Shown: positions 16,216 to 32,810 of the stretch, one piece after another
Position numbering within the stretch: position 1 is the stretch's first letter
Layout: each line of letters starts with the position of its first letter
Assembly: GCA_016927185.1 (NCBI GenBank)
Contig: JAFGND010000047.1
Location: forward strand, 1 to 56,766
Direction of reading: 5' to 3'
Length of the DNA: 56,766 nt
Source: Candidatus Coatesbacteria bacterium
Lineage (GTDB): Bacteria > JAFGND01
Translations under genes and position numbers: made by a program
Notes under the pieces: generated by a model
The model's database searches: none
What the model was told of the DNA's origin: nothing
What the model saw: only the letters and a program-made list of their open reading frames with translations

Positions 16216-17550
16216 CTAGAAAGCCTCTTCTTCCTCATCTTCAGAAAGCGAGCTGAAATCGATATTGTAAAGATTGATAAGTTTTCTCAACCTGTTAGGA
16301 GAGAAGAAAACACATGATTCCTTGTCTTCCTGACCTGATGCCACTTCTTCCGCGAATGTACTGCATGTAGGGCAGCCACATAACCCGCAATTGAACTTTG
16401 GCAGAAGTTTAAGGAATTCATCCCTTTTCTTCATTTTCTTGACTGCTCTCAAGATATTGGTATCTAAAGGCTTTAATGGTCTAGGCAGGAGTTTTCCATG
16501 CAGGAAAGAGATTTTATCATCATAGTATTTCTTTGCTGCATCAAGGTCTATCTCTAATCTCTGGGGAAACCTGTTGCTTAAATCAATTAGTCTGCTCCTG
16601 TTTATATACGAGCTTTCTACTGTCAGGGAACCACCGCAACAGCCAAGCGGAGACGACCAGCATTCTATGAATTCCACCCCCCTGAGCCTTCCCGATTCTA
16701 TTTCCTGGAAAATCCTTATCAGATTTGATAAACCTGCAACAGCTAGCCATCTTTCCTTTGCAAGTATTCTTAGTAAACCTCCAACATAACCGAAACTGAT
16801 GCCAAGACCTGATATAGGTGATATCGGTTCACTCAAGGTATGTTCCTTGGAAATCTCGAAAACCTTGGAATACAAATGATTGTAAATATCCTGTATTCCT
16901 ATTGTCCCATCAAGAGATGATCTGGAGCCTTCTGCAGGTTGCTTGATTGAGATCATAATCGCACTGCAAGGAGCAATGAAGAAGCATGAAATTTCCTCAG
17001 GCTTTACCCCCAATCTTTCAGATATAGTAACCTTGGCGAGCATTGCAATAAACTCTCTTGGAGGCTGGAGGGGAAGAACATGCTCAACGAGACTTGGGAA
17101 AAGAACCTGTATCAGTCTGACAACAGTAGGGCATACGCTCAATATGACAGGTCTCAATGACCTGTTTTCTGAAAGCCATCGTTCTATTGAATATACATAA
17201 TACTCAAGAGCTGTTGAAATATCAAACACTTCATTGAAACCAAGCTGTATAAGTCCTTCCTGAACACATATCGGGGAGATCTCGCTTCCGAAATGACCAT
17301 ATATAGCAGATGAAGGAATTGCGACTTTGTAACTGAATCTTGGAAGAGTGGAAAAAGCATCAGTTTTCGGGACTATTGCCTTATGAGTACAAACCTGAAG
17401 GCACAATCCGCAATCTATGCATCTTTCCGAAACCAGGGCAGCTTTTCCCCTTCGTATCCTTATCGCACTGGTTGGACATATCCTCATGCAAGCCATGCAT
17501 CCAGTGCACGATTCCTCAATAAACTGAATTGAATGATAATACTCAGTCAT
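16216..17550 (-). CDS. [FeFe]-hydrogenase-like protein (sensory/ancestral type) with degenerate H-cluster motifs, N-terminal 2x[4Fe-4S] and C-terminal FeS domain
   Basis: CTGCMACMRICP, CIDCGLCLQVC; L1-like LSVCPTVV; L2-like APCSAIM; L3-like ECWSSPLGCCGG; C-terminal LPKFNCGLCGCPTC..C. Confidence 0.85.
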   Translation of the reverse strand: MTEYYHSIQFIEESCTGCMACMRICPTSAIRIRRGKAALVSERCIDCGLCLQVCTHKAIVPKTDAFSTLPRFSYKVAIPSSAIYGHFGSEISPICVQEGLIQLGFNEVFDISTALEYYVYSIERWLSENRSLRPVILSVCPTVVRLIQVLFPSLVEHVLPLQPPREFIAMLAKVTISERLGVKPEEISCFFIAPCSAIMISIKQPAEGSRSSLDGTIGIQDIYNHLYSKVFEISKEHTLSEPISPISGLGISFGYVGGLLRILAKERWLAVAGLSNLIRIFQEIESGRLRGVEFIECWSSPLGCCGGSLTVESSYINRSRLIDLSNRFPQRLEIDLDAAKKYYDDKISFLHGKLLPRPLKPLDTNILRAVKKMKKRDEFLKLLPKFNCGLCGCPTCSTFAEEVASGQEDKESCVFFSPNRLRKLINLYNIDFSSLSEDEEEEAF

Positions 17551-17552
17551 TT

Positions 17553-17987
17553 TTACAAATAATCAAAGGTCATTATAACTCTTGTTCCCTTGTCTGGTTC
17601 TGATTCTATCCTGAAGGTGTTAGAATTCTCTTTCATATTGGGTAATCCCAGACCTGCCCCAAAACCGAGCTCCCTCATTTCATCTGTGGCAGTAGACCAG
17701 CCTTTTTGCATGGCTTTCTCCAAATCAGGAATTCCGACACCACAATCTGTTACCTGGACTTCTATTTTCAGATCGGTAAGATTGAATAACACATTTCCAG
17801 GTGAATGTGCATACATGCATATATTCATTTCTGCCTCGAATACTGCAACAGAAACTCGTCTTACAATATCCGGTTTTATACCAAGGCTTTTCAGTATTTC
17901 CCTTATCTTCTCTGTAGCTGTTCCAGCTTTTTCGAAATCCCCTTCCTCAATGTGAAAAGATTGACTTATTAATATTGTTTCTTTCAT
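17553..17987 (-). CDS. RsbT-like anti-sigma regulatory factor / Ser-Thr kinase (HATPase_c)
   Basis: FEAEMNICMYA, DCGVGIPD, GWSTA, GFGAGLGLPNM, GTRV. Confidence 0.88.
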   Translation of the reverse strand: MKETILISQSFHIEEGDFEKAGTATEKIREILKSLGIKPDIVRRVSVAVFEAEMNICMYAHSPGNVLFNLTDLKIEVQVTDCGVGIPDLEKAMQKGWSTATDEMRELGFGAGLGLPNMKENSNTFRIESEPDKGTRVIMTFDYL

Positions 17988-20227
17988 TTCACTGATTCGT
18001 CAATTATCTGTGCAATTGCAAGTCCCTGTATCACTTCTTCATCAATTGATGTAATGTCCCTCGCATTTCCCAATATCCAGACATCCCTGTTATTACTTGA
18101 TTGCAGCAAAGAACCCATTTCATTACTTGCTTTCAGGAATTTTCCTTCATCAAGTTCTAATCCAAGCAATCTTGATATTCCGGGCAGATCATTATGAGGT
18201 CTCGATCCAGTTGCAAGAACTATCAAGTCAGATTCTATTTCTTCTCCATCAGGCATGATAACTTTATCATTATCAAGTATAATCTCATTCTCTACCTTTA
18301 TCAGATTTACATTGGCTTCAATTGATGCTGTCAGTAGTTCCTCTTCTGCCCCTTTCAGCCTGATGCCTCTATGAATAATACTTATCTCACAATCTGGATA
18401 AGATCTCCTTATTTCAAGTGCATTTTCAAGTGTTTCCTTGCAGCAAAACCTGCTGCAGAAGGGGAATTCGACATTTCTCGAACCATGACATTGAAGAAAG
18501 ACTACTTTATTGATTCCTGACAGATCATTTTCAGCTATCCGCCTTGCCAATTGGCTATTGCTTATCATTTTTGGTTTTTCCTCAGTTTCATGTTTCCTTG
18601 ATGAAGTAGCTACTATAATCCTGTCTGCTTCGTATTCATTGCCTGACACCTTTATTTTTCGCTTGAAATAATCCCCTTCTACTTCAATAATATCTTTCAA
18701 ATCAAGCAGAGCAAGGTTCCTGTTAGTGGAAAGCAGCTCATATTTCTCCTTGTACCCGGGAAGAATATATTCCTTGTCAGAATCACTGAAAGCCCAGATA
18801 ACCTCTTTCCCGAAATCAAGGAGAGTATCACAAGCGATTATTGCCGAGACAGAAAAACCCAGTATTAATACTTTTTGAGAGATGCACTTCTTCTTAGGCA
18901 AAGAGAAAAATTCCCTGTGTCTCATTATCATTTCTTCAACTGAAATACTCTTGTCAACAACGGCTCCCTGCATGTTATACTTCTGAGCCATTAAAGAGAA
19001 CATTTTGCTGTTGATTCCATAGCATGGGAAGAGAAGAACTCTCTTTATGTCATTCTCTTTCATGCCCTGCAGTTTGCCAGTTCCATCTTTCTTGCATGCG
19101 AATGAAGATAAGTAAACAAGATCCTTGAAACTGGATTCTGTCAGTTTTTTTAAAACGGAATCTGCATGGTCTTTCCAGATGTTTTTAAGCCCGTATTCAC
19201 AGACAAGTATAGCTGTTTCTCCATCAACAGGAACTATACATTCGCTTTGCACTTCACTGGTATTCAGCTGTTTCAGCAAGGCAGTAGCGGCAGCATGCCC
19301 CGAAAGTACTGCATCCATTGTATTGCATGGTTCAATGAATGAACCAGCTGAAATAATCTTTCCGTTCATCCTTGCAGGTGAGTTGTCTTCTGCAAAGCCG
19401 TATTTGTTTATCTTTATTCCAGCAGTTCTTGCCAGGTTTCTTGTTTCTGCTTCTGCCCCCTGAGCAACTGAGAGTACAGCAAGATCAAATCCCTCTTCCT
19501 GCTCATTGTTGTCTTTATTATACGTTATCATCACTTGTCCATCATCGTTTTGCCTTATGCTGTCTATTTCACAGTTAACAAGCTTTATGGACTTTTTATC
19601 AAGAACCTCACCAAATTGCAGTTCTCCTTCTTTTCCATAAGGTCTCATATCCCTGTAGAAAATTGTAATTCTTGCATCAACAAAGCGTTTCATGATTTCA
19701 AGGGAATGTTTCAATGTAACGCTGCAACAAATATTTCCACAATAATCTCTTCCAAGACCTTCTTCACGTGCTCCTATGCACTGAATGAAAGCAATTTTGT
19801 GTGGGTAAGTGCCATCGAATGGTCTCATCAGAATTCCCTTATAAGGTCCTGTAGGGGATAAAATTCTCTCCAGTTCAATGCTTGTTATTATGTTGCAGTT
19901 GTCCTTGTATCCGAGATGCAAAAGCTTGTCTGGAGAGAATACATCAAGACCTGGTGCAATAATCACTCCATCAATCTCAGTTTCCCTGCTTGCATCCTTC
20001 ATATCAAATTTAATGGCTTCCGTATCACATTCAGCAAGGCACAACCCGCATCCTAGACATCTTCTGCAACTGAAACACCTTTGAGCTTCAATCAATGCCT
20101 GTTCCTCTGTAAAACCTTTCTCTACTTCAAGGAAATTTTCCTTTCTTTCTTCAAGATGAAGCTCATTCATCCTTGTTCTTTTCTGTGGTACATCAGAAAA
20201 ATCAGGAATAAACTTGTCTTTTTTCAT
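17984..20227 (-). CDS. HdrL-like protein, C-terminal half (GltD tail + ferredoxin + HdrA core + second degenerate HdrA module)
   Basis: EERKENFLEVEKGFTEEQALIEAQRCFSC (GltD-type tail), CLGCGLCLAEC, TSIELERILSPTGP, FIQCIGAR..CGNICC; second QCHGSR..CSRFCC. Confidence 0.85.
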   Translation of the reverse strand: MKKDKFIPDFSDVPQKRTRMNELHLEERKENFLEVEKGFTEEQALIEAQRCFSCRRCLGCGLCLAECDTEAIKFDMKDASRETEIDGVIIAPGLDVFSPDKLLHLGYKDNCNIITSIELERILSPTGPYKGILMRPFDGTYPHKIAFIQCIGAREEGLGRDYCGNICCSVTLKHSLEIMKRFVDARITIFYRDMRPYGKEGELQFGEVLDKKSIKLVNCEIDSIRQNDDGQVMITYNKDNNEQEEGFDLAVLSVAQGAEAETRNLARTAGIKINKYGFAEDNSPARMNGKIISAGSFIEPCNTMDAVLSGHAAATALLKQLNTSEVQSECIVPVDGETAILVCEYGLKNIWKDHADSVLKKLTESSFKDLVYLSSFACKKDGTGKLQGMKENDIKRVLLFPCYGINSKMFSLMAQKYNMQGAVVDKSISVEEMIMRHREFFSLPKKKCISQKVLILGFSVSAIIACDTLLDFGKEVIWAFSDSDKEYILPGYKEKYELLSTNRNLALLDLKDIIEVEGDYFKRKIKVSGNEYEADRIIVATSSRKHETEEKPKMISNSQLARRIAENDLSGINKVVFLQCHGSRNVEFPFCSRFCCKETLENALEIRRSYPDCEISIIHRGIRLKGAEEELLTASIEANVNLIKVENEIILDNDKVIMPDGEEIESDLIVLATGSRPHNDLPGISRLLGLELDEGKFLKASNEMGSLLQSSNNRDVWILGNARDITSIDEEVIQGLAIAQIIDESVK

Positions 20228-20236
20228 AATATCCTT

Positions 20237-21910
20237 CTAGTTACTGAGATATTTATCAATTCCTTCAGCTGCAATATGTCCGGCTGCGATTGCCTTTATG
20301 ACTGTCTGAGGACCGGTCACTGCATCACCTCCTGCGAAAATATGCGGGATATTTGTCTGTCCGGTTCTCGTATTTATATTAAAGCTGTTCCATTTGGAAA
20401 TTTCAAGCCCATGACCAGCAGCTAGCCATGATACATCAGGTTCCTGGCTTATTGCAGGGATTATAAGGTCACATTCTATCTCGAATTCACTTCCGGGAAT
20501 TGGAACGGGTTGTCTCCTGCCGCTTGCATCAAGCTTTCCAAGCTTGCTTTTAAGGCATCTTATTCCTGTCACTCTCCCGTTTTCCCCAATGATTTTTTCT
20601 GGTATTATAAGGAAATGAAGATTGACTCCTTCGTCCTCAGCTGCATCAACTTCCCATGAGTTTGCTGGCATTTCAAGTCGGGATCTTCTGTACAGTATGT
20701 AAACTTCATCACACCCAAGCCTCAAGGAAACCCTGGCACTATCTATTGCAGAATTTCCTCCACCAATGACAATGACTTTCTTTCCGGGTTTTGTCTTGTC
20801 TCCAAGATTTACTCTCGTTAGATAAATGATGCAGTCAAGAAGTCCCTTGAAATCATCCTCTCCGGGTATTCTCAGTTTCAATCCCTTATGTGCACCAACC
20901 CCGATAAAAATAGCCTTGAAACCTTCTCTTCTAAGATCATCCAGGGAATGCTCCGATCCTATTGGATGATTGTAGATAATCTCAGTTCCAAGCCTTTCTA
21001 TCTGTTCTGTCTCTACCTGGATAATATCTCTGGGCAATCTGTATTCAGGTATGCATAACCAAAGCATTCCTCCAGGAACAGGAGCTCTTTCGAATATTGT
21101 CGGTCTGTATCCCATTTTAGCAAGATCGTGTGCTACAGTAAGTCCTGCAGGACCTGCACCAATTATAGCCACCTTTTCCTTAGTGGAAGGTGCTTTTATT
21201 GGAAGAGGGCTCAGTTTCCCTTCTCTGTAAAGTGCAAGTTCATAATCTGAAACAAATCGTTTCAGGGCATCTATCGAGATTGCCTCATCATATTTTTTCC
21301 TGTTGCATGCTGTCTCACATGGATGATTGCAAACCCTTCCACAGATACCTGGAAGCGGATTTTTTTCCCTGATTACATTCAATGCTCCAAGATAATCCCT
21401 CGAAGCAATCAACCCTATATATTTCCTTATATCTATATGAACTGGACAAGCTTCTATACAAGCTGGAGTTTCCTTCTCAATGTAGTAGACCTCTTCAGAA
21501 TATGGATTGCTTGTATCAATGGCAGTTCTCAAGGACAAGCCTTCATTGAAAGTGTTGAATGGTTTTGCAGGACAGACTTCAGCACATCTGTCACACAAAT
21601 TGCAGTCATCGTTAGTTCTTTTTGATTCAAGATGAATTTTTGCCTTGAATTTTGTTTCTTCAGGCTTCAGTGATTTCAGCTTTGCAAGGGTCATCAATTC
21701 TATGTTTGGGTGATTCCTTGCAGAAAAGAGAAGATCTGCAATCTTGCATATTGAAGGATCATCATCAGGAAAGACAGTATTCAATTTGCTTAAAAGTCCT
21801 CCTGCAAAAGCTTCTTTTTCCAGCAGGTAAACATATATTCCCTTTTCGGCAAGATCCATAGCTGCTGTTAGTGAAGCTATACCTGTTCCAATAATCAATA
21901 CTTTATCCAT
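20237..21910 (-). CDS. HdrL-like protein, N-terminal half (HdrA FAD N-segment + GltD/SudA-like NAD(P)H oxidoreductase)
   Basis: VLIIGTGIAS..LLEKEAFAGG..TVFP; CNLCDRCAEVCP; PACIEACPVH, CGRVCNHPCETAC, GAGPAG, GGGNSAID, YRRSR, AGGDAVTGP. Confidence 0.88.
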   Translation of the reverse strand: MDKVLIIGTGIASLTAAMDLAEKGIYVYLLEKEAFAGGLLSKLNTVFPDDDPSICKIADLLFSARNHPNIELMTLAKLKSLKPEETKFKAKIHLESKRTNDDCNLCDRCAEVCPAKPFNTFNEGLSLRTAIDTSNPYSEEVYYIEKETPACIEACPVHIDIRKYIGLIASRDYLGALNVIREKNPLPGICGRVCNHPCETACNRKKYDEAISIDALKRFVSDYELALYREGKLSPLPIKAPSTKEKVAIIGAGPAGLTVAHDLAKMGYRPTIFERAPVPGGMLWLCIPEYRLPRDIIQVETEQIERLGTEIIYNHPIGSEHSLDDLRREGFKAIFIGVGAHKGLKLRIPGEDDFKGLLDCIIYLTRVNLGDKTKPGKKVIVIGGGNSAIDSARVSLRLGCDEVYILYRRSRLEMPANSWEVDAAEDEGVNLHFLIIPEKIIGENGRVTGIRCLKSKLGKLDASGRRQPVPIPGSEFEIECDLIIPAISQEPDVSWLAAGHGLEISKWNSFNINTRTGQTNIPHIFAGGDAVTGPQTVIKAIAAGHIAAEGIDKYLSN

Positions 21911-21911
21911 T

Positions 21912-22688
21912 TTACCTGATAACCTCAATCAAACGCTTGTTATTTCCCGCTGTAAATGCAGGGGCATTATCTTTCGATCCGTCCTGCCTTACTATTCCAA
22001 GCCTCAGCATATTCGCAATCTGACGTACAGCTCTTCTAGGTGGAATATTAGTAATTTCAGCCAGTTCTTTTATAGTCAGGGGTGAGTTCTCGAGAAGAAG
22101 TATTATTTCCTGGGTAAGAACTTCATCCTGTGCAACCTCCCTGAAGAGTCTGTTTATCTCATGAGGAGTGAATTTCTCACCATACAAGTTACCATCTGTC
22201 TCGAATTCAGTTTTCTTTCCGGCAAGCCATCTTATTTTTTCTCCCATAACTGCTCTGTATGCTGCATGTAACTTTCTCTGCGTGTTAGCATCATCAGGGA
22301 GCTTTCCTTCCGCTATTATTGTTTCAATGAAATCAGAGACTGACGAAACGAATTTTCCGCTTTCTGCTGAGCTCATCATACTCAGTTTTACACGTTTTTC
22401 TGTAAGTCCTGTATATTTCAAGATATGCTTTGCGAAGATTATTCTGGCTTCTGCCTGGAGATTTCCTGAGGTATAATGGCATTCCCCCTTGAGGCAAGTT
22501 CCTATGAAGACGCCATCTGCACCATTGAGGAAGGCAGAAAAGATCATTTCCAAATCAACTCTCCCTCCGCACATAACGCGAATTATTCTTACATTCGTAG
22601 CATATTGCATTCTCGCCACACCTGCGAGATCAGCTGCCGAGTATGCTCACCAGTTGCAGCAGAAAGCAATAATATTAGGGGAAAACAT
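21912..22688 (-). CDS. mvhD: Selenocysteine-containing MvhD/FlpD [2Fe-2S] subunit with C-terminal winged-HTH-like extension (258 aa, Sec14)
   Basis: Reading from ATG 22688 (GAGGTG RBS): MFSPNIIAFCCNW-TGA-AYSAADLAGVARMQY..RVMCGGRVD..GTCLKGECHY. TGA at 22647-22649 sits at the conserved CCNWC position. Confidence 0.92.
22600..22646 (-). promoter_or_regulatory. Bacterial SECIS-like hairpin of mvhD
   Basis: Directly after UGA: GCAUA..GCA..UCUCGC-A-GGUG-UG-GCGAGA..UGC..UAUGC; G-starting apical loop 24 nt from UGA. Confidence 0.8.
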
Positions 22689-22700: not shown

Positions 22701-24374
22701 TTACTCTTTAAAACATGCTTCTATTTGTGCAAGAAGCTGCTCATCCTTGTAATGACTCATTGTTATGGCATGCCTGTAGCAAGTGGAACCACAAACTCCG
22801 CAGCCTTTGCAGGCAGCTATGATTATTTTTGCCTTTTTTCCCTTATCAGTATTGACAAGCTCAATAGCTTTGTAGGGGCACAAACTGACACATAATCCGC
22901 ATCCCCTGCATATATCTTCGTCAAGCAAGCTGTTTATTGGTTCCACCTTCACCTTTCCATTACCGAGAGGAATGGATGCCCTTGCAGCACAAGCTTCTGC
23001 CTGATAGATTGCTTCATTTACTGTGCAGGGCCATCTGGCTGAACCGCATATGAATATTCCATCAGTAGCAAAATCGATTGGTCTCAACTTCATGTGTGCT
23101 TCAAGGAAAAAGTTATTCTCGTCAGTTGGTACCTTGAGTATCCTTGAAAGCTCCTGAGCGTCGCTGTGCGGAATTTGTGGAGTTGCCAGCACTGCTAGTG
23201 AATAGGGAATGTTGAACTCCCTGTTCAGGATATCACTGTAAATTTTCACTGCATCTTTTGTCACTTCAGGAGGCTTTTCTGCTGAATAGTGAATGAACCT
23301 TACTCCAAGATTCTTTGCTTTCCTCAGCAACCTCTCGTTTTCATGTCCTAGTGCCTGGATATCTCGGTAAATTATGTAAACATCTATCCTGTCATCTCTT
23401 TCCTTCAACAGTATGGAGTTCTTTATTGCCTCCATGCAGCAAATCTTGCCACAGAAAACGTTTTCACTATTCCTGCTTCCAACACATTGTATCATTACTA
23501 CGTTATTATTTATCTCTAAATCCTCGTTTGAAAGCAGCTTTTCAAGTTCATACTGGGTTATTATATTTCTTCCATTATAGCCGTAATATGGTGAGGGATC
23601 AAGCATTCTTGTACCGCTTGCCAGTATTATTACTCCTGAATCTATCTCCTTTGTTTCCTTCTTGCTGTTTTCTACTATCATCTTGTATGCACCAATGCAG
23701 CCTTTCAAATCCACTGGTTTGTAACCTTTATATATATTTATGAGAGGCAAGTTCTCTGCCTCGTGCAAGATATCTTCTATAATGCCTTTTGCAGATGTCA
23801 TTTCAGGTTGAATAATATTCAAATCAAGTAGTCTGCCGCCTAACTTGTTGCTTCTCTCCACAAGATGAACCTTGAAACCGCGCTTTGCAAGAGATACTGC
23901 TGAGCTTAATCCTGCAACCCCGCCTCCAATAATTATTGCTTCATTAAGTACGGGGACTTCTATGAATTCCTTAGGTTCAAGCAATGCAGCTCGTGCCACG
24001 CCCATTCTTATAAGATCCCTGGCTTTTTTTGTCCCTTTTTCCCTGTCATTCTTGTGCACCCAGGAAACATGTTCCCTTATATTAACGAACTCGAACAGGA
24101 ATGGATTCAGACCTGCTTCCTGACATGCGGCCCTGAATGTAGGTTCATGCGTTCTTGGAGTACAGGCTGAAACAACAACCCTGTTAAGATTATGCTGCAC
24201 TATGGCATTCTTTATTTCTGAAATTCCTGCCTCTGAGCATGTGAAGAGATTCACTTTGGTGAATACCACATCAGGAAGTGTTGATGAGTATTCGGCAATA
24301 TCCGAAACATCGAGAAATCCTGCAATATTTGTTCCGCACTTGCATACAAAAACGCCAATCCTTGTTTCTTCCAC
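22701..24374 (-). CDS. hdrA: HdrA-family FAD/Fe-S subunit (N-terminal domain + core + C-terminal ferredoxin; QmoB-like without MvhD)
   Basis: IGVFVCKCGTNIAG, ACTPRTHE, NIREHVSWVH, GGGVAG, QCVGSR..CGKICC, FLEAHMKLRP, CRGCGLCVSLCP, CKGCGVCGSTC. Confidence 0.92.
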   Translation of the reverse strand: MEETRIGVFVCKCGTNIAGFLDVSDIAEYSSTLPDVVFTKVNLFTCSEAGISEIKNAIVQHNLNRVVVSACTPRTHEPTFRAACQEAGLNPFLFEFVNIREHVSWVHKNDREKGTKKARDLIRMGVARAALLEPKEFIEVPVLNEAIIIGGGVAGLSSAVSLAKRGFKVHLVERSNKLGGRLLDLNIIQPEMTSAKGIIEDILHEAENLPLINIYKGYKPVDLKGCIGAYKMIVENSKKETKEIDSGVIILASGTRMLDPSPYYGYNGRNIITQYELEKLLSNEDLEINNNVVMIQCVGSRNSENVFCGKICCMEAIKNSILLKERDDRIDVYIIYRDIQALGHENERLLRKAKNLGVRFIHYSAEKPPEVTKDAVKIYSDILNREFNIPYSLAVLATPQIPHSDAQELSRILKVPTDENNFFLEAHMKLRPIDFATDGIFICGSARWPCTVNEAIYQAEACAARASIPLGNGKVKVEPINSLLDEDICRGCGLCVSLCPYKAIELVNTDKGKKAKIIIAACKGCGVCGSTCYRHAITMSHYKDEQLLAQIEACFKE

Positions 24375-25681: not shown

Positions 25682-27203
25682 ACAAAACCTCGTTTTTCTT
25701 CGATATTTTACATAAACTATATACGAAACTCGCTAAATCCATCAATTTCACTGACTGTTCATTTGTGTCCTTCTGTGCACATCTCAAATGAATCAGACAC
25801 TTTGGACATGCAGTCAGCATTATTTCTGCTTCCGTTTCTTTCGCATCATCAAGTCTTGACATCTGGATTGATTTGTTACAAGAAGTGCATTGTACCCATC
25901 CGCTTGAACCACAACATATGGAAGTTTCACGGTTTTTCTGCATTTCCTTCAATTTTACATTCTCGAATAATGTCAGAAGATCCCTGGGGCTTTCATAAAT
26001 CCCGCTGTATCTTCCCAGCCTGCATGGATCCTGATATGTTACAGAGACTGTTTCATGGTTATCTATATCAGGGATCAATGCATACTTGTTCTCCATAATT
26101 ATGTCAGTCCAGAAAAGAACTTCAAGACTGGATTCTCCCAGTTCTCTTGGATAAATATTCTTGAATGTATGATAACCTTCCGGGCAGCCGAAAATGACAG
26201 TCTTGTAATTACCCTTTTTTATCCACTCAAGATTATGCCTTGCAAGTCTCTTGAATACATCCAGCTCTCCATTCCAGTATGCATCATGTCCGCAGCATAC
26301 TTCATCAGGAGAAAGTGCTGGATTTATTCCTGCAAGGCGTAGAAGATTCAAGATCGCATTTGTGCTGTCCGTAATCTTCAAATCAAGATATTTGAAAACT
26401 ATATCATATACAGGTGCACAGCCTGCAAAATATGCTATATCAGTATCCAACGATTTTTTTTCACAATTCAACCACTCGAAAGTCTTTTTTCTTGGTTCTT
26501 TTGCTTCAAGCAACCTTGTTTGTTGAAGAATACCTGCATGAGTGAGTGCCATATGAGCTCCTGAATCAGCTGCCTTATCACGCAGCTGTCTTATGAAGTC
26601 CGTGAAATTCACTTTCGATGGGCATACTTCCTCACAAGTTTTACAGGTAAGACATGTCCAGATAATATCTGATGATAAAATCTCGCTTTCAAGTGACAAC
26701 AGGCAATCCTCGACAATTATCCTTGGAGAGAAGCTCTTGTTGATCCTGCTCATTGGACAGATGCCTGTACAGACACCGCATTCCAGGCAGTATTCAGCGT
26801 TTGTCTGTTCTATCATTTCAGTAATCTGCAGCCTGTTTATCCTGGATGCGAAGCGATTTACTATATCCTCGAAAGCAGCTCCTGAAGTATCGGACATAAG
26901 GTTGATTTCCAGTGATTCAGATCTGTGTCCAAGCCATTTCAATATGCTCTTTGCTTCCTCAACTCTTGTTTTTGCGAATTCATTGCCGTTCACGAAATGA
27001 CATTCTCCTGCAGAACAACCCAGCACAAGAACTCCCCTGGCTCCTTCCTCAAAAGGCTGAATGAGCATTGCGGTTGTAAGACTGCCAGTGCATTCCACTG
27101 TAATTATTCTCATGTCGTCAGGAATGCTTCTCTTTTCAACTCCTGCATTATCCGCAGCAATGGAAGGATTCCATTTACAAGCGTAAACTATTATTGAAGG
27201 CAT
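25671..27203 (-). CDS. MvhD-HdrC-HdrB(CCG) fusion (MvhD + HdrD/GlpC-like)
   Basis: [20 protein letters not shown] (MvhD); [12 protein letters not shown] and [12 protein letters not shown]; two CCG domains (FAGC..CCG..GCPEG; DPC..CCG..ACPKC). Confidence 0.9.
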
Positions 27204-27215: not shown

Positions 27216-28820
27216 TTAATCTTCTAAAACAGCATGAACAGCTTTTCTTATTTCCTCTTCAGATTGATATTTCATTTTTATAGCTCCTGAAATGCATACA
27301 CCAAGGCATATTCCACATCCCTGACAGAAAGCCACATCCACAGAGGCAAACTTGCCTTCATTTTTTTCTGTGAATGAGATAGCCTTGTATGGGCAAGATT
27401 CAATGCATCTGCCGCAAGCCCTGCAGTAGATTTCGTTCACAGAGCTTACTTTTGCAGTTTTTCTTGCAGTCTCTTTCTTGAATATGTTTATCACCTTGTA
27501 TGCAGCACCATGAGCCTGGATGATTGCCTGGGAAACAGTGCATGGTTTATGAGCACTTCCACAGACATAGATACCACTTGGTAATGTATCCTTCATACGT
27601 AACTTCTTTATATCATCTACAATAAAACCTTCAATATCTGTGACTAAATGCAGGATCTCAGTCAAAGATTTATTCTCTTCTCTTGCTTTCCATTTAATCG
27701 GAAGGCAGATGCATGATGAGCGTATTTCCATGGTTTCTTTTTCATTATTATATATGACAAGATTCTCGCTTAATTCTTCAATTATCTCATAATGGATGAA
27801 GTCAACAGACAGTTTCCTGCATTCATTTATTAGCTGAGTAAATTCCTGAGGTAATGACTTGTAAAGTACAGTTACCTTGATATCCGGCTTTGATTTCTTT
27901 ATTAAATAAGCATATTTCAGCATCAACAATGCATCAATAACTCCCCCTGATAATTCCCTGGGATCTTTATCAATCAAGCTTTGTATGAACAAAATTTCCT
28001 TGCCTATCTGGTCATTTTTCAGTTTTTCCTCAATAATCAGTGGATCCGCGAACTTGTTCTCTCCATAAGATAATCCTGTAGCAACTATTATTGCACCTGC
28101 ATCAATTTTTTCTGATTTATCACCCGATTCAATATTTACAGTGAAATTACCCAGATGACCTTCAATACTCCTTATTTCGGATGAAATAAGAATCTTTGCT
28201 TCCCTCAACAATTCCAGTTTCCTCTTGAGGCAATTGTTGCTTTTCTCAAAAGAAGGAGCAATATAATCGAACCTTCTCAAGCTGCCTCCAAGCATGCCTT
28301 CCTTTTCAACTATATATACTTTATAGCCCTGATCCAGGATATCACAAGCAGCAGTAATTCCAGCAATACCTCCACCAATCACGAGGCATGATTTGTTTAC
28401 CGGAAGGACTATATCTTCCAAAACTTCCCTTGCCTTCAGTCTTGCAATACCCTGCCTTATCAATGAAATGACTGTATCAGTCTGTGTTGCTTTTTCCCTG
28501 TTCCCGCTTATCCATGCGCATCCTTCCCTGATATTGACTATTTCCAATGCAGATCTGGGTATATTAAGATTTTCTGCCCATTCGTAAAAGATAAGTGCCT
28601 GATTTCTTGGACTGCAACCAGCTATAAGCAACTTGCTTTTCCCGTTTTCCTCTATCGTTTTCATGAAAAAATCTTTTCCGCATGATGAACAGAGATAATT
28701 ATGTTGTTCGAAAAAAGCGATATCCTCTATTTTTTTAATAGCATTCTCAATATGGTTCAAATCAAACTTCAGATTACCATTGCAATTACAATAAATAATC
28801 CCGATGCCAGTCAGCTCCAT
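27216..28820 (-). CDS. HdrA-family subunit, diverged (core Fe-S cysteines lost)
   Basis: YCNCNG, YLCS, GCSPR, NIREGCAW, GGGIAG, C-terminal CRACGRCIESCP and CQGCGICLGVC; QCxGSR..CxxxCC is replaced by QSLIDK..GGVIDA. Confidence 0.85.
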   Translation of the reverse strand: MELTGIGIIYCNCNGNLKFDLNHIENAIKKIEDIAFFEQHNYLCSSCGKDFFMKTIEENGKSKLLIAGCSPRNQALIFYEWAENLNIPRSALEIVNIREGCAWISGNREKATQTDTVISLIRQGIARLKAREVLEDIVLPVNKSCLVIGGGIAGITAACDILDQGYKVYIVEKEGMLGGSLRRFDYIAPSFEKSNNCLKRKLELLREAKILISSEIRSIEGHLGNFTVNIESGDKSEKIDAGAIIVATGLSYGENKFADPLIIEEKLKNDQIGKEILFIQSLIDKDPRELSGGVIDALLMLKYAYLIKKSKPDIKVTVLYKSLPQEFTQLINECRKLSVDFIHYEIIEELSENLVIYNNEKETMEIRSSCICLPIKWKAREENKSLTEILHLVTDIEGFIVDDIKKLRMKDTLPSGIYVCGSAHKPCTVSQAIIQAHGAAYKVINIFKKETARKTAKVSSVNEIYCRACGRCIESCPYKAISFTEKNEGKFASVDVAFCQGCGICLGVCISGAIKMKYQSEEEIRKAVHAVLED

Positions 28821-28829
28821 TTTACCTCC

Positions 28830-29513
28830 TTACTGGAGCTCCTCAATCCAGTTATTTACTGAACCCGGTTTCTCGTTATCAACATGATATTTAGAGCATA
28901 TATTACATCTTTGAGTATGAAATCTCCCTTCGTATTCATGAAGAGATTTTATCCTGTCGAATACCTTTATATCAATTGCTCTTGTAGGGCACATTGTTTC
29001 GCATGTCCCACATGAAATGCACGCACTTGTCACTGATTCATAAGGAGGTGAAACAGCCTTGTTCTTCCCTCTTTTTATTAGGCTTATTGCACCTGCCCCG
29101 ACAAGGTTATGACAAGCCCTGACGCATATTCCGCATAATATGCATTTTCCCTCTTCTTCAGGGGGGAATCGGGTTTCAATTAATCCATAACGGGCTGCCA
29201 TTATCTTGATTATTTCAGCGTCAGGACAATCTGCAAGAAGAAGTTCGAGTATAAGTTTCCTTGCATTGATAACCCTCTCTGAATCGGTTTTTACAATAAG
29301 ACCTTCAGAAACAGGATAGGCACAAGAGGCAACAAGAATTTGACCTCTTGGTGCTGCTATTTCAACAACGCATATCCTGCATGCTCCATAAAATCCAAGT
29401 GCTTCATGATAACACAATGTGGGAATATAGAAACCGTTTATCAAGGCAGCTTCCAGTATAGTGCAGTTTTCCCTTACTGTCAGGTCTTGTCCGTTTATAT
29501 TAATATTTACCAT
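28830..29513 (-). CDS. NuoG-N/HoxU-like Fe-S subunit ([2Fe-2S] + 2x[4Fe-4S]; no catalytic domain)
   Basis: IPTLCYH..GACRICVVE..ASC; CILCGICVRAC; CISCGTCETMCP; only 227 aa. Confidence 0.9.
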   Translation of the reverse strand: MVNININGQDLTVRENCTILEAALINGFYIPTLCYHEALGFYGACRICVVEIAAPRGQILVASCAYPVSEGLIVKTDSERVINARKLILELLLADCPDAEIIKIMAARYGLIETRFPPEEEGKCILCGICVRACHNLVGAGAISLIKRGKNKAVSPPYESVTSACISCGTCETMCPTRAIDIKVFDRIKSLHEYEGRFHTQRCNICSKYHVDNEKPGSVNNWIEELQ

Positions 29514-29521
29514 AAATTTTC

Positions 29522-31444
29522 CTATTCCAGTATAATTGCATCACCAGCAATTGCGTCATATTTACAAACTTCGTAACATGCACCACATTTTATGCACTTT
29601 GATTTATCAAGATTATGAGCTTGTGATCTTGGACCTGTTATTGCATGAGTAGGACAGACAGAAACGCATCTCTGGCATCCCGTACATTTCCCGGGAATGA
29701 CCCTGTATTCTATCAATGCCTTGCAAACTGCAGCGGGACATCTCTTATGCTTGATATGAGATTCATATTCAGTCCTGAAAAATTTCAGGGTAGTCAGGAT
29801 TGGATTAGGAGCAGTCTGACCCAGGCCGCATAAAGATGCATCCTTTATTCCTTTCGCCATTTCCTCCAGCAGCTCTATATCCTTCTCTTCACCTTGTCCC
29901 TGCGTAATCCTGTGTATTATCTGCAGCATTCTTTTTATTCCTGATCTGCATGGTACGCATTTTCCGCATGATTCACTTTCCAGGAATTCAAGGAAGAATC
30001 TTGCTACGTCCACCATGCATGTTTTCTCATCCATTACTATAAGACCACCGGATCCCATTATTGCACCTGCTGAGGTTAGTTCTTCATAATCCACCCTTAA
30101 ATCTATAAGGTCCTTGGGTATGCAGCCTCCTGATGGTCCTCCTGTCTGTATGGCCTTGAATTCAAATTTGTCTGACATTCCATCACCAAGATTATATACT
30201 ATCTCTGATATGGTAGTTCCCATTGGCACTTCAATCAGCATCGTATTCTTGACCTTGCCTACTAAAGAGAAGACCTTGGTTCCCTTGCTTTTCTCAGTTC
30301 CTATACTGGAAAAGAATTTTGATCCTTTTGCTATTATCACAGGAATATTTGCCCATGTTTCCACATTATTTATATTGGTAGGTTTTCCGAACAATCCGGA
30401 TTGTGCAGGGAAAGGAGGTCTGGGTCTTGGTTCACCTGGAAGTCCCTCAATGGAAGCTATAAGAGCTGTTTCCTCGCCACAAACGAATGCACCTGCTCCC
30501 ATCGAAATCTTGAGATCGAATGAGAAGTCAGTTCCAAGTACTTTCTGTCCAAGAAGACCGTATTCCCTTGCCTGCTTTATGGCTATCTTCAACCTTTTTA
30601 TTGCAAGGGGATATTCCGCTCTTACATATATATAACCTTCATCTGCACCGATTGCATAAGCACCTATAAGCATTCCTTCTATCACACTATGGGGATCTCC
30701 CTCTAAAACACTTCTATCCATGTATGCTCCGGGATCTCCCTCGTCAGCATTACATATTATATATTTCTTACTTCCTTCTGCCTTCCTTGTGAAGCTCCAT
30801 TTCAAGCCAGTCGGAAAGCCTGCTCCACCTCTACCTCTGAGACCCGAAGCTTTTATTTCCTCTATAACTTCATCAGGTGACATTTCTTTGAGAACCTTGA
30901 ATAATCCCTTGTATCCGCCGAAGGCTATGTATTGATCTATCTGCTCGGGATTTATCCTGCCACAGTTCCTCATGACAATCCTCATCTGTCCCTTGAAAAG
31001 ATTGAGATCTTCCATTGTAGTGATTTCCCTGTAAATGTCAGATATATCACTGGCAAGATTTATTTCATCTTCATTAATGAATTTTTCCTTATCAAGCCTG
31101 TAAAGAACCCATTCCTTTCTTATATCTCCTTCTTCCAGGCTTTTGACAAGTTTCTCTGCTTTGTAAATATTCAAGTCCCCATAATAAATCCTGGAACATC
31201 CCGGCATTCTTAAGTCAACTATTGGTTCCTTGAAACAAAGACCTATGCACCCCACTTCATCAACAATGTACTTGTCAGGTTGATTTGCTGACAATTCCCT
31301 CAGGAATGACAGGGTTTGTCCGGCACCAGTTGCCAAACCGCAGGTTGCGGAACCAACCTGGAATTTTATCTTGCTTATTTGAAACATTTCATTTAAGGTC
31401 TTCTGTGAAATGTTTCTTAAATCTGATACTTCCTTTATCAACAT
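29522..31444 (-). CDS. NuoF/HydB-like FMN NADH-binding subunit (long form: N-terminal [2Fe-2S] thioredoxin-like domain, C-terminal ferredoxin)
   Basis: GCIGLC, LRGRGGAGFPTG, CNADEGDPGAYMDR, GAGAFVCGEETAL, ESCGKCVPCR, SLCGLG, CTGCQRCVSVCP, CIKCGACYEVC. Confidence 0.95.
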   Translation of the reverse strand: MLIKEVSDLRNISQKTLNEMFQISKIKFQVGSATCGLATGAGQTLSFLRELSANQPDKYIVDEVGCIGLCFKEPIVDLRMPGCSRIYYGDLNIYKAEKLVKSLEEGDIRKEWVLYRLDKEKFINEDEINLASDISDIYREITTMEDLNLFKGQMRIVMRNCGRINPEQIDQYIAFGGYKGLFKVLKEMSPDEVIEEIKASGLRGRGGAGFPTGLKWSFTRKAEGSKKYIICNADEGDPGAYMDRSVLEGDPHSVIEGMLIGAYAIGADEGYIYVRAEYPLAIKRLKIAIKQAREYGLLGQKVLGTDFSFDLKISMGAGAFVCGEETALIASIEGLPGEPRPRPPFPAQSGLFGKPTNINNVETWANIPVIIAKGSKFFSSIGTEKSKGTKVFSLVGKVKNTMLIEVPMGTTISEIVYNLGDGMSDKFEFKAIQTGGPSGGCIPKDLIDLRVDYEELTSAGAIMGSGGLIVMDEKTCMVDVARFFLEFLESESCGKCVPCRSGIKRMLQIIHRITQGQGEEKDIELLEEMAKGIKDASLCGLGQTAPNPILTTLKFFRTEYESHIKHKRCPAAVCKALIEYRVIPGKCTGCQRCVSVCPTHAITGPRSQAHNLDKSKCIKCGACYEVCKYDAIAGDAIILE

Positions 31445-31920
31445 TCTTGTCCTTCTGATTTTGCTCTATACTTTTCCAGAATTGAAGGGATGCGTTCCTG
31501 TTTCAAGGTTCCGAATGTTTCCTCGTCAACTCTAATGACTGGGGCAAGACTGCAGCAACCAATGCATCTTACTGCCTCGAGGGTGAATTCACCGTCAGAA
31601 GATGTTTCACCTTCCTCTATCTCGAGCTCTCTCTTGAATTTCTCCAGCAAGTCATTGGCACCTTTTACGTGGCAGGCAGTTCCCAGGCATACATGAATGA
31701 GATGCTTGCCTTTAGGCTTGAGAGAGAATGCATTATAAAATGTTGCTATTGAATATACTTTTGCAGCAGGGATATTTAATCTTTCTGCAATAAGTATCAC
31801 TGCCTCTTCTGGAATATAACGCAAGGAAGCCTGCAAATCCTGGAGAATTGGAATCACTGCTTCTGGATCAGCAGGGAATCTCGACAGTATCTCCTCAATA
31901 ATATATACTTCGTTATCCAT
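31438..31920 (-). CDS. NuoE/HydC-like [2Fe-2S] subunit
   Basis: ATFYNAF, VCLGTACHVKG, RCIGCCSLAPV. Confidence 0.95.
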   Translation of the reverse strand: MDNEVYIIEEILSRFPADPEAVIPILQDLQASLRYIPEEAVILIAERLNIPAAKVYSIATFYNAFSLKPKGKHLIHVCLGTACHVKGANDLLEKFKRELEIEEGETSSDGEFTLEAVRCIGCCSLAPVIRVDEETFGTLKQERIPSILEKYRAKSEGQEC

Positions 31921-31926
31921 ATCAGA

Positions 31927-32256
31927 TTATCTGATGCCAGCTTCGTAAAGCTCATGGCACAAATCATATGTTGATAGACCTGTTGTAAAAACTGTTATCT
32001 CGCTGAGGTTTGCTGCTTCAATGACTTCTTCAAGAGGTTGTTTGTCCCTGGCAATTATTATTGCAGAAACATCAATCATTGCCCCGACACTTATGATTTT
32101 CTTGTGTGTCTGTATGGTAATCCAGAGATTTCCTCCTTTTCCAAAAGCCATAAGATCGCTAACCATATCAGAAACGAAAACACCAGTAATATCTCTATCA
32201 AAAAGGTTGTTAAGTGGAGTAATATTCACTTTTTTGATGAGTTCTGAAATTTTCAT
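31927..32256 (-). CDS. DRTGG-domain protein
   Basis: ITGVFVSDMVSDLMA..LWITIQTH..AIII; family typical of hydrogenase-associated operons. Confidence 0.82.
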   Translation of the reverse strand: MKISELIKKVNITPLNNLFDRDITGVFVSDMVSDLMAFGKGGNLWITIQTHKKIISVGAMIDVSAIIIARDKQPLEEVIEAANLSEITVFTTGLSTYDLCHELYEAGIR

Positions 32257-32270
32257 TTTTCCTCCTTTTA

Positions 32271-32810
32271 TTATTCAGGTTCTTCTTCACTTAAAAGACC
32301 GACATCCTTGAAAATATCACCTCTACAGCCTTTGGGTAATAAGCGCAAAGACGAAGAAACAATAAGGATCTTTTTATCCCTGCTTGCAAGTCTTGAATTA
32401 TAAAGCTTGTTCAAGGCTTTCAGCTGGTCTAAAGTAAGATATTCAGTAACATTCGGTTTGTTCTGGTAACATAATGCTGCATAAACAAGAATTTTGTTAT
32501 CCCTTGCCACCTGAGTGAGATTGTTAAGATGGCATTCTCCTGTGCATCCCGTACAATTCATCAAGCCCAGGAGATTGTCGTAATTTATTATCTGTCCGCA
32601 TAACTGACATTCAAGTTCAAATCTTATTGTCTGGTCAGCTCCCAGAATTATCCAGTACTTGTCTCCATCCTTGTATTCCTGCATTGATGGTGCATCTTCA
32701 GTTGAGAAGTAATCCACATATTCATTAGTATTTATGCATTTTTCAGTAACAATGAAGCCACTTTGCAGATTTATCATTTTCCATTCATGATTACATAATT
32801 CTCTTGGCAT
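32271..32810 (-). CDS. Cys-rich hypothetical protein (first gene of the redox operon)
   Basis: GGAG RBS; CNHEW, CQLC, CTGCTGEC, ALC, GC motifs. Confidence 0.75.
   Translation of the reverse strand: MPRELCNHEWKMINLQSGFIVTEKCINTNEYVDYFSTEDAPSMQEYKDGDKYWIILGADQTIRFELECQLCGQIINYDNLLGLMNCTGCTGECHLNNLTQVARDNKILVYAALCYQNKPNVTEYLTLDQLKALNKLYNSRLASRDKKILIVSSSLRLLPKGCRGDIFKDVGLLSEEEPE

Follow-up and report, generated by a model that had tools for sequence, protein, structure and literature searches.

The gene cluster described here lies in a 56,766-nucleotide (nt) stretch of contig JAFGND010000047.1 (GenBank assembly GCA_016927185.1; Candidatus Coatesbacteria bacterium), the whole of which is referred to below as the window. 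Fourteen open reading frames (ORFs), g1 to g14, occupy positions 16216-32810, every one on the minus strand, with g1 at the 32810 end and g14 at the 16216 end (Table 1). They bring together a NuoEFG-like module, a series of HdrA-, MvhD- and HdrD-like proteins and an NADP(H)-binding domain. Judged from its sequences, the operon appears to be built like the BamDEFGHI part of class II benzoyl-CoA reductase (BCRII), although it is not a set of orthologues and BamBC is missing.

Table 1. The fourteen ORFs of the cluster, listed from g1 to g14, with positions in the window (aa, amino acids; Sec, selenocysteine; TrxR, thioredoxin reductase).
Gene	Position	Strand	Description	Basis
g1	32271..32810	-	179-aa Cys-rich protein, first gene of operon	ORF
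g2	31927..32256	-	109-aa small alpha/beta protein	Pfam Hpr_kinase_N only, E 7e-6
g3	31438..31920	-	NuoE/HydC/BfuC/BamG-like [2Fe-2S] subunit	PF01257 2Fe-2S_thioredx, E 5.6e-52
g4	29522..31444	-	640-aa NuoF/HydB/BfuB/BamH-like FMN/NAD(H) subunit	Complex1_51K, NADH_4Fe-4S, 2 Fer4
g5	28830..29513	-	227-aa short NuoG-N, type-2 BfuA/BamI-like connector	Fer2_4, Fer4_7, no PF10588
g6	27216..28820	-	534-aa degenerate HdrA-like, non-bifurcating (BamE C-half) architecture	Pfam and alignment
g7	25671..27203	-	510-aa MvhD::HdrD/BamD-like fusion	FlpD E 8.8e-34, CCG E 2.7e-22, Fer4_8
g8	24389..25681	-	Sec-HdrA, BamE N-half; TrxR1-like FAD domain containing a ferredoxin insert	Motif DCSIU
g9	22701..24374	-	557-aa HdrA-like, BamE C-half	Alignment
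g10	21912..22688	-	Sec-MvhD with helical and winged-helix C-terminal extension, BamF-like adaptor	FlpD E 1.1e-44, HTH_5/HTH_24/MarR_2
g11	20237..21928	-	N-part of split HdrL: HdrA-like FAD N-terminus, then NfnB/GltD-like FAD and NADP(H) domain	Fer4_20, Pyr_redox_2
g12	17984..20227	-	C-part of split HdrL: rest of first HdrA-like domain and second degenerate TrxR-like domain	NCBIfam HdrA2, residues 284-573
g13	17553..17987	-	144-aa GHKL ATPase, SpoIIAB/RsbW type (partner-switching serine kinase-like)	HATPase_c_2, E 3e-10
g14	16216..17550	-	444-aa [FeFe]-hydrogenase-like Fe-S protein, C-terminal PF04060	Fe_hyd_lg_C, 71 bits

An initial annotation of this DNA had described fourteen genes that overlap or lie within 15 nt of each other, and the coordinates agree with it. 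The gaps measure 14 nt (g1/g2), 6 nt (g2/g3), 8 nt (g4/g5), 9 nt (g5/g6), 12 nt (g6/g7), 14 nt (g8/g9), 12 nt (g9/g10), 9 nt (g11/g12) and 2 nt (g13/g14), the largest across the fourteen genes being 14 nt, and overlaps of 7, 11 and 4 nt occur at g3/g4, g7/g8 and g12/g13 respectively. The genes g10 and g11 are either 1 nt apart or overlap by 17 nt depending on the start chosen for g11, which is likely to be the ATG at 21910; the start codon of g8 is the ATG at 25681 and not that at 25669. Domain labels were taken from a Pfam scan and from NCBIfam models with their cut-offs, and with these nearly all the parts named in the initial annotation were recovered. The DRTGG label given to g2 was not, as no Pfam match to DRTGG was found in this gene at E <= 1e-3 and Hpr_kinase_N was its only family.

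On the 5' side of g1 a 376-nt intergenic stretch is followed by the divergent genes rplM-rpsI. An aminotransferase gene lies 3' of g14 at a distance of 40 nt, or about 136 nt if counted from its first ATG, and it may or may not belong to the same transcription unit. Predicted promoters (64 sites against 52.7±6.5 in shuffles) and terminators (14 sites against 13.1±4.1) were not above the shuffled sequences, and in the one RNA run compared the operon was matched by a single 35-nt piece of 90-95% identity inside g4. Contigs from three independent runs, namely two biogas-fermenter metagenomes and one other metagenome, span 30 of 30 bins, mostly at 95-99% identity, and show no indels inside the operon, the g11/g12 junction included. 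Single independent contigs bridge g14-g13-g12, g12-g11-g10, g9-g8-g7 and g7-g6-g5. Since the last of these joins the NuoEFG-like genes to the Hdr-like genes, that junction is not an assembly chimera, and the whole arrangement, including the splitting of HdrL into two ORFs, is real because the junctions are bridged without indels.

The first module is formed by g3, g4 and g5. The NuoE model of NCBIfam (NF005722) scores 150 bits for g3 with a cut-off of 141. The protein g4 is extended at its N-terminus, ends in a 2x[4Fe-4S] domain and contains the motif DEGDPGAYM, so that the extra Fe-S domains and the GAYM motif reported in the initial annotation are borne out. Its best matches in the PDB are 9bov_B, 7t2r_B, 7q4v_B and 8oh5_B (E 1e-237 to 1e-222), and solved HydB/BfuB-type subunits of the Nfn-Bfu, NiFe-Bfu, HydABC and Stn complexes match at E 1e-237 to 1e-189; g4 can be aligned with 9mqx_B over residues 6-635 and with 9n5u_B over residues 28-632, the N-terminal extension and the C-terminal ferredoxin domain included. 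All the domains by which BfuB is defined thus appear to be contained in g4 (FMN/NAD(H), NuoF [4Fe-4S], C-terminal 2x[4Fe-4S] and an N-terminal [2Fe-2S]-type extension), and because the N- and C-terminal Fe-S domains of ferredoxin-interacting subunits are present it looks like a Bfu/HydB protein rather than a plain NuoF.

The short g5 has motifs for one [2Fe-2S] and two [4Fe-4S] clusters and lacks the domain of the His-ligated cluster (PF10588), a domain that does match the N-termini of HydA and FdhA of the same genome. Its best PDB match is 9mqx_A (E 7e-40), a 247-aa NuoG-like chain from an entry that also contains a NuoF-like chain and an aldehyde:ferredoxin oxidoreductase (AOR), and which we take from its chain names to be a WOR-Bfu complex. 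Identity to the BamI-like proteins of AOR-linked loci is 32-40%. A GltD domain is absent from g5, which therefore is not a BfuA of the Nfn/Stn type. In type-2 members of the Bfu family BfuA carries clusters A1/A2(/A4) and is without the His-ligated A3 and without A5 (Schut et al. 2022, PMC9304861), and in these terms g3-g5 are a type-2 Bfu module.

The Hdr-type core follows in g6 to g10. The fusion protein g7 keeps the four cluster cysteines of its MvhD domain, without the extra Cys/Sec, and has two cubane motifs and two CCG motifs in its HdrD-like part. CPEG takes the place of CxxC at the end of the first CCG motif, and the second is complete (CPKC), so one of ten CCG cysteines is gone and g7 departs from the canonical two-CCG proteins; the HdrB of the same genome has CSAC at this position. 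As CPEG is common to 103 of the 120 best g7 homologues, with CxxC in the remaining 17, it is a subfamily trait. Fused MvhD::HdrD-like forms occur elsewhere as well.

The domain set of a canonical HdrA is divided between g8, with the TrxR domain and its insert, and g9, whose N-terminal cluster domain and C-terminal 2x[4Fe-4S] ferredoxin flank a TrxR2-like domain that has neither the ferredoxin insert nor a CxxC. The N- and C-terminal HdrA domains are absent from g8, which matches the NCBIfam model HdrA2 over residues 142-559. When aligned with the genome's own HdrA, with g9 and with the C-half of BamE-like proteins, g6 has no inserted ferredoxin domain and no CxxC, and its C..CC motif is changed to S..ID; it has the architecture of g9 minus the cluster cysteines of the TrxR domain. 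A lysine near the FAD, tried as a means to separate bifurcating from non-bifurcating HdrA units, was not discriminating as every unit keeps a lysine five residues after the CC motif.

Two in-frame TGA codons occur in the core, at 25514-25516 in g8 (read CSIU) and at 22647-22649 in g10 (read CCNWU). Both are read as Sec because they sit at conserved Cys/Sec positions and the genome has a tRNA-Sec gene (contig C102), and with this reading the N-termini of the two proteins are recovered; hairpins resembling a selenocysteine insertion sequence 3' of the two codons were no better than shuffles (z-scores -0.96 and -0.52). The C-terminal extension of g10 is about 130 aa long, and a family of long MvhDs of about 250-270 aa matches residues 5-250 of g10, whereas a word-based search with the C-terminal part retrieved only g10 itself.

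The split HdrL is encoded by g11 and g12. The HdrA-like stretch of g11 covers residues 8-160 and has PSIC in place of CxxC. Matches in the PDB were 9bov_A (E 7e-106), 9n5u_A, 8oh5_C, 5jca_L and 4ylf_B, with the motifs GGGN(S/T)A..YRR(S/T) aligned, and its GltD domain, in which the sequence GGGNSA...YRRS is found, has its nearest counterparts in the NADPH-binding subunits of Nfn-Bfu, Stn and NfnAB, in line with the NADPH-type site named in the initial annotation. Both halves of BamE-like genes were covered by g12 in tblastn. Taken together, g11 and g12 form a HdrA-like tandem whose ferredoxin domain contains an NfnB/GltD-like insertion, and with the MvhD gene g10 upstream they are of the HdrL type, though in two ORFs.

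BCRII of Geobacter metallireducens is a 1-MDa Bam[(BC)2DEFGHI]2 complex (bioRxiv 10.64898/2026.04.10.717634). According to the same source BamGH are the input, of HydBC type, at which electrons of NADH and reduced ferredoxin are confurcated, and BamI is a connector with three clusters. BamF is an MvhD adaptor more than 100 aa over the usual length, with a winged helix touching BamI and Sec19 near its [2Fe-2S] cluster. BamE is a fused HdrA dimer in which unit 1 holds the bifurcating FAD and Cys59-Cys62 and unit 2 is structural, and BamD is a HdrD-like high-potential exit with a modified distal cluster that reduces the electron-transferring flavoprotein (ETF) and not a heterodisulfide. The modification is a Cys-to-Ser change in the distal non-cubane site.

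The likeness of the operon to BamDEFGHI, noted in the initial annotation, proved stronger than claimed there. BamGH and BamI resemble g3-g5 with the order bamG-H-I colinear, and bamD-E-F are colinear with the C-terminal part of g7, g8, g9 and g10. The cluster content of g5 is that given for BamI. All three BamF features (more than 100 aa of extra length, winged helix, Sec near the [2Fe-2S] cluster) are found in g10, which could be aligned with the BamF-like genes of BCRII-type loci in other genomes (L077-L094) over residues 3-241. The DCSIU motif of g8 stands at the position of the BamE cysteine pair (DCSxC-type) and is absent in g9 and g6, and g8 and g9 resemble the BamE halves, one CxxC-bearing and one structural. 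Identity to the BCRII-type loci is 29-52% overall, with 44-52% for g4, 36-44% for g5, 29-34% for g7, 40-44% for g8 (42-44% against the N-half of the BamE-like proteins in L077/L078), 37-38% for g9 and 32-36% for g10.

The differences from BCRII are also several. BamB and BamC are absent from the operon; BamE, fused in L077, L078, L079, L087 and L094, is split into g8 and g9 and has Sec in its CxxC; and the BamD-like domain of g7 is fused to a second MvhD. The CPEG of g7 contrasts with SPHC in five BamD-like genes of AOR-linked loci, a set that does not include the BamD of G. metallireducens itself. The degenerate HdrA (g6), the split HdrL with its NADP(H) domain and the presumed regulator genes at both ends of the operon are additional to the Bam set.

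Other described systems share parts of the arrangement. Type-2 Bfu enzymes likewise have a BfuB with an FMN/NADH site and N- and C-terminal Fe-S domains, a NuoE-type BfuC and a short BfuA (PMC9304861), but the module attached to BfuA here is HdrA/MvhD/HdrD/HdrL and not a hydrogenase, formate dehydrogenase (FDH), Nfn, WOR, POR or CODH; Bam-Bfu is the sole Hdr-bearing Bfu member mentioned in the available part of that article. In contrast to Nfn/Stn-type Bfu enzymes, the GltD domain is carried by a HdrA-like protein and not by the BfuA (g5), and in contrast to canonical HdrABC-MvhD, the single four-domain HdrA is replaced by g8 and g9.

HdrL has been known since 2009 from Desulfobacterium autotrophicum (PMC2702500), with further HdrA-NfnB fusions in HdrABC/HdrL of S. 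fumaroxidans (PMC5947623) and in HdrA9-11 of ANME-1 (PMC9012536). The NfnB/GltD-like insert in the HdrA ferredoxin domain, the adjacent MvhD and Sec in neighbouring Hdr/MvhD genes are common to these systems and the operon. However, HdrL here consists of two ORFs in the same operon as a Bfu module, no DsrC was found in this organism, and a methanogenesis context was not seen. Transcriptional units of the form nuoEFG-mvhD-hdrA were noted in 2013 in Desulfotignum phosphitoxidans (PMC4046663). These units, and seven of the loci found in our searches (L104, L130, L144, L147, L151, L166 and L177), share with the operon the order NuoE-NuoF-short NuoG followed by HdrA-like and MvhD genes without an AOR. 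They are shorter, or they include HdrBC, FrhB-like or MvhAG genes or NuoE/NuoG-HdrA fusions, and none has g1, g13, g14 or the full g6-g12 series behind NuoG-N.

With an alignment of long MvhDs (10 rows) 603 stretches were confirmed in the genome collection, and the best 79 loci among them were inspected; with an alignment of g5 592 were confirmed in the metagenome collection, and here the best 80 were inspected. The exact order of the fourteen genes was present in no other locus examined except in near-identical strains in other metagenomes. Among the best 79 loci of the genome collection the long-MvhD match extended beyond residue 215 in 32. Five of these 32 have NuoE, NuoF and NuoG-N alongside and are of the BCRII type, where a BamD-like gene is succeeded by a fused g8-like/g9-like gene and then by a long MvhD; an AOR was seen in four of the five (L077, L078, L079 and L087) and none is in view in L094. 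A search with g7 in 40 other genomes, limited to kin of the same domain, gave some match in 26 and NuoEF beside the best matches in none, and a scan of genome contigs with g7 alone gave 40 pattern matches, none of them confirmed.

Recurrent adjacency of Bfu and HdrA genes was found in the metagenomes. At least 900 bp downstream of the g5-like gene were available in 57 of the 80 loci, and in 11 of these 57 a HdrA-like gene comes after NuoG-N or is fused with it; an AOR match was found in none of the 80. The order NuoF-NuoG-N-HdrA-MvhD is repeated in L147. An archaeal and a bacterial metagenome-assembled genome (MAG; L104 and L130) share the order HdrC-HdrB-HdrA-[HdrA-N::NuoE]-NuoF-[NuoG-N::HdrA::HdrA]-MvhD-FrhB-like…BamE-like-MvhD, with short MvhDs and no AOR. 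In these two (L104:3838-9959 and L130:3544-9947), and also in L166, L168 and L176, NuoG-N is fused to one or two HdrA-like units (1081-1125 aa) and the N-terminal FAD segment of HdrA to NuoE, and NuoE-NuoF lies inside an interrupted HdrA-like gene. The HdrA-N::NuoE and NuoG-N::HdrA::HdrA fusions of L104 and L130 argue for physical contact between Bfu and HdrA modules. Another locus (L177:5625-19264) encodes HdrD-like, NuoE, NuoF, NuoG-N, HdrA, long MvhD, BamE-like and MvhD proteins followed by the small and large subunits of a [NiFe] hydrogenase, and its gene content is that of a Bfu-Hdr cluster whose load is of the Mvh type.

The scanned ORFs of the window gave no Pfam match to AOR, FDH, molybdopterin or catalytic hydrogenase domains apart from the Fe_hyd_lg_C domain of the degenerate g14, which upholds the initial observation that the operon is without BamBC and without a hydrogenase, FDH or Mo/W catalytic subunit. 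Genome-wide, g14 excepted, matches to these families are on other contigs. The genome (2.99 Mb, 109 contigs, 93% complete) encodes a 590-aa M3-type HydA (C97:12671-14443; L045:6672-8444) that scores 352 bits and has no HydBC beside it, lying between a helicase and a fumarate-lyase-type gene. Its first H-cluster motif is TSCSPGW; the canonical motif is TSCCPxW. A Sec-FdhA of the NuoG-N type lies at the end of contig C65 and a stand-alone AOR on C63. A split AOR on C65 (51093-53878; L052:7094-9879) consists of a 264-aa AFOR_N gene followed by a 660-aa protein in which BfuA-like Fer2_4 and 2xFer4 domains are fused to AFOR_C. AFOR_N occurs on C63 and C65 only, without a BamC-like neighbour. The C63 AOR matches BamB (4z3w) with 163 bits and the generic 1aor and 9mqx_D with 172 bits, over the N-domain only. 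Of the candidate trans partners that the initial annotation had proposed to look for, HydA, FdhA and AOR genes are present and DsrC was not found. Other redox genes are a canonical HdrC-HdrB-HdrA set on C45 (HdrA 651 aa), an MvhD at a contig start, Rnf and a Bcd-EtfB-EtfA cluster; an ETF with a ferredoxin domain is encoded on C74.

We favour a reading in which g3-g12 encode one soluble Bfu-Hdr supercomplex with several flavins, Fe-S clusters and Sec, similar to BamDEFGHI and without the tungsten load BamBC, and we give it about an even chance. The existence of one particle, the course of the electrons through it, the acceptors and the net reaction are inferred from the features above. The FMN/Fe-S site of the BfuBC pair (g3, g4) would be where electrons are exchanged with NADH and ferredoxin, and the type-2 BfuA connector g5 would relay mid-potential electrons. 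From there the Sec-MvhD adaptor g10 would pass them to the HdrA-type FAD of g8 (CxxU), with g9 as the structural partner as in BamE. The g8 flavin, presumed to be the bifurcating site, would split the electron pair. One electron would leave at high potential through g7, the presumed high-potential exit, to an acceptor such as a thiol/disulfide couple or a protein like ETF, and the other would be passed at low potential along ferredoxin-type domains, either to ferredoxin or to a different low-potential site. The split HdrL (g11, g12) would provide an NfnB-type entry or exit for NADP(H) on a second HdrA-like unit, and the particle would link NADH, NADPH and ferredoxin to a fourth carrier. It is plausible that the operon combines two bifurcation chemistries, which the initial annotation had suggested for one complex. 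A prediction of a complex between g5 and residues 19-262 of g10 gave a score of 0.00 in two runs, which weighs neither way.

Several observations count against the single supercomplex or against its likeness to BCRII. In a Syntrophobacteria MAG (L099) a block colinear with g6-g12 (41-58% identity; 58% for g8 and 53% for g9) has another HdrA-like gene upstream, and its Bfu trio is on a separate contig beside a dnaX-like gene. The two are unlinked in that genome, and the one large complex of the initial annotation is weakened accordingly. A g6-g12-like Hdr/HdrL block without adjacent Bfu genes was also found in two further genomes (G015 and G002). The identity of g7 to BamD-like proteins (29-34%) is lower than that to the HdrD-like proteins of clusters with Hdr genes alone (41%), and its CPEG differs from the SPHC of the BamD-like proteins. 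Other Bfu-Hdr loci have a catalytic partner, namely MvhAG in L177, FrhB-like proteins in L104/L130 and AOR in the BCRII type, and here such a partner in trans is possible. In a Methanophagales MAG (L059) a block colinear with g8-g12 begins at the first base of its contig, where the upstream side is invisible.

The blocks without Bfu neighbours in L099, G015 and G002 fit two or more separate enzymes under shared regulation, a Bfu-Hdr unit (g3-g7) running from NADH/ferredoxin to the HdrD-like site and an HdrL unit (g8-g12) running from NADPH to ferredoxin and a high-potential acceptor, either that of the first unit or a different one. So do the short NuoE-NuoF-NuoG-N-HdrA-MvhD units of L144 and L147, though both contigs end soon after, and the self-standing HdrL and MvhD described in D. 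autotrophicum (PMC2702500) and Syntrophobacter fumaroxidans (PMC5947623). The fourteen genes are nevertheless continuous: no gap exceeds 14 nt, and g7 overlaps g8 as g10 does g11. The only BamF-like adaptor (g10) is in the second block far from g5, although BamF bridges BamI to BamE, and the only HdrD-like exit (g7) is in the first, so that each half would miss a part found in the other. We regard separate enzymes as possible but rather doubtful. We hold a bolder form of the supercomplex reading equally tentatively, in which the operon encodes a self-contained hub of four carriers with no substrate-converting subunit. A Bfu-type site and one or two HdrA-type sites would act in series, with the NADP(H) site on the second HdrA unit and an Fe-S sensor and kinase in control, and NADH, NADPH, ferredoxin and a thiol/disulfide couple or ETF would be interconverted by need.

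The operon could instead be the electron-input machine of a catalytic load encoded in trans, such as a BamBC-like enzyme, the orphan HydA, the Sec-FdhA or an AOR-family enzyme, and candidates do exist on C97, C65 and C63; the MvhAG, FrhB-like and AOR genes of other Bfu-Hdr loci point the same way. None of these candidates, however, has a BamC-like partner or neighbouring Hdr genes, the C63 AOR resembles BamB no better than it does generic AORs, and AORs are missing from the 80 g5-like metagenome loci. HydA, FdhA and the split AOR moreover own BfuA-like N-domains, for which the NuoEF pairs of contig C40 (described below), being without a BfuA, would be the more natural docking partners, and we consider a trans-encoded load unlikely. 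A canonical heterodisulfide or DsrC-type reductase that uses NADH through NuoEF without a second bifurcation would account for the HdrA, MvhD and CCG domains, and NAD(P)H-linked Hdr enzymes (Flox-Hdr, HdrABC/HdrL) have been proposed in sulfate reducers (PMC5947623). It is very improbable here, as the genome, at 93% completeness, gave no DsrC, g7 is short of one of the ten cysteines of the CCG motifs, a separate canonical HdrC-HdrB-HdrA is present on C45, and the Fe-S domains of g4 are those of ferredoxin-interacting Bfu/HydB proteins and not of a plain NuoF. For the same reasons of motif and precedent, CPEG in g7 and a BamD whose modified cluster serves ETF, the 'unknown disulfide' of the initial annotation is overstated and a disulfide is only one option. 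Two other links were rejected, one to an Mvh-type hydrogenase, as a search of the 93%-complete genome yielded no [NiFe] hydrogenase, and one to a Wood-Ljungdahl MetFV-Hdr system, as the only methylenetetrahydrofolate reductase is fused to a homocysteine methyltransferase domain and lies beside bacterial microcompartment/PduS-like genes.

An undescribed system, as first proposed, is too strong a description. Hierarchical coupling of HydBC-type and HdrA-type modules has been shown structurally for BCRII (bioRxiv 10.64898/2026.04.10.717634) and was already proposed in 2022 (PMC9304861), and the nuoEFG-mvhD-hdrA units (PMC4046663) and HdrL (PMC2702500) precede it. The available portions of the literature on BamDEFGHI, Bfu and NuoEF/HdrA/MvhD bifurcation held no description of this gene arrangement. 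The operon is therefore not a categorically new system; it is made of known modules and follows a coupling principle already described, and its arrangement had no counterpart elsewhere in the collections examined. Serial coupling of Bfu-type and Hdr-type bifurcation has so far been shown for one enzyme, BCRII, where electrons are pushed below the usual biological redox window. The operon and the related Bfu-HdrA loci and fusions of metagenomes suggest that this engine also serves outside aromatic degradation, here with an NADPH port added and no visible load. If its products form one complex, they would be a simpler object for studying how the modules are coupled, and would bear on the role of such engines in the energy-limited fermenters and syntrophs of sediments and biogas reactors, where DNA of this strain occurs. 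The operon, from an uncultured deep-branching anaerobe, is a good target for testing Bfu-Hdr engines without an aromatic-ring load.

The genes at the two ends of the operon (g1, g2, g13 and g14) are taken to be regulators, probably an Fe-S sensor derived from an H-cluster protein with a partner-switching-type kinase, because a similar set recurs on contig C40, g13 is SpoIIAB/RsbW-like and a g13-like and a g2-like gene are paired beside NuoF in L180. The Fe_hyd_lg_C score of g14 is 71 bits against 352 for the true HydA of the genome, to which it is 26% identical; identity to its paralogue on C40 is 40%. In alignment its H-cluster motifs are degenerate (SVCP, APCSAIM and ECWSSPLGCC). Sensory [FeFe]-hydrogenases of group C combine an H-domain with an altered proton-relay cysteine and a PAS or kinase signalling domain. 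In g14 the first motif has SVCP, the third has no aligned first cysteine, and no PAS domain is present, with the HATPase_c_2 gene g13 adjacent; it is presumed to be a sensor and not a catalytic hydrogenase. The definition of group C was drawn in part from PMC11406978. For g13 the score with TIGR01925 is 50.9 bits, below the cut-off. The small g2 is likely to be the partner or substrate of the g13 kinase-like ATPase, as judged from its sequence and neighbours; g2-like genes adjoin Bfu genes in L168 and directly follow the g13-like gene in L180. No family was found for g1 in Pfam or NCBIfam and its Atlas matches are all below 0.9; it is possibly a regulatory or metal-binding accessory.

The second locus with regulator and Bfu genes in this genome (C40:6769-18186; L047) begins with HATPase_c_2 and continues with a HydS-like gene of 416 aa that shares 40% identity with g14, an ORF of 114 aa, a PHP-like ORF of 255 aa, NuoE, HATPase_c, a [2Fe-2S] ferredoxin, a 1017-aa NuoF::GltD, NuoE, a 526-aa NuoF and two ORFs without a family, and a BfuA-like gene is absent. 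On contig C38 (25522-31549; L048:7523-13550) NuoE, NuoF and a 1244-aa BfuA with Fer2_4, GltD-like, Fer4_Nqo3 and molybdopterin-like domains form an Nfn/Stn-Bfu-like trio, which adjoins a PAS histidine kinase and a sigma-54 activator.

Elsewhere in the window, a 125-aa 2x[4Fe-4S] ferredoxin with an overlapping 101-aa ORF (14421-15100, minus strand) lies downstream of the aminotransferase on the same strand as the operon and could be a partner of it. A 240-aa Fer2_4 and Fer4 protein followed by a 543-aa FAD_binding_2 flavoprotein (42023-44391, minus strand) forms another NuoG-N-like/flavoenzyme pair. Three B12-binding radical SAM paralogues of 489, 489 and 537 aa are found at 1218-4167 (plus strand) and 8188-9801 (minus strand), with a further radical SAM/BATS gene at 11670-12728. 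A 1050-aa ORF without a Pfam family lies among cell-envelope genes (37551-40703, plus strand), a 1374-aa hybrid sensor kinase has multiple PAS domains and a receiver domain (51711-55835, minus strand), and sorting domains of the type IX secretion system occur in the window and elsewhere in the genome. Beyond two relatives at 66% identity, the MnmG protein (9782-11689, minus strand) matches proteins of Gemmatimonadota, Thermodesulfovibrionales, Planctomycetota and others at no more than 53%, by which the lineage looks deep and poorly sampled.

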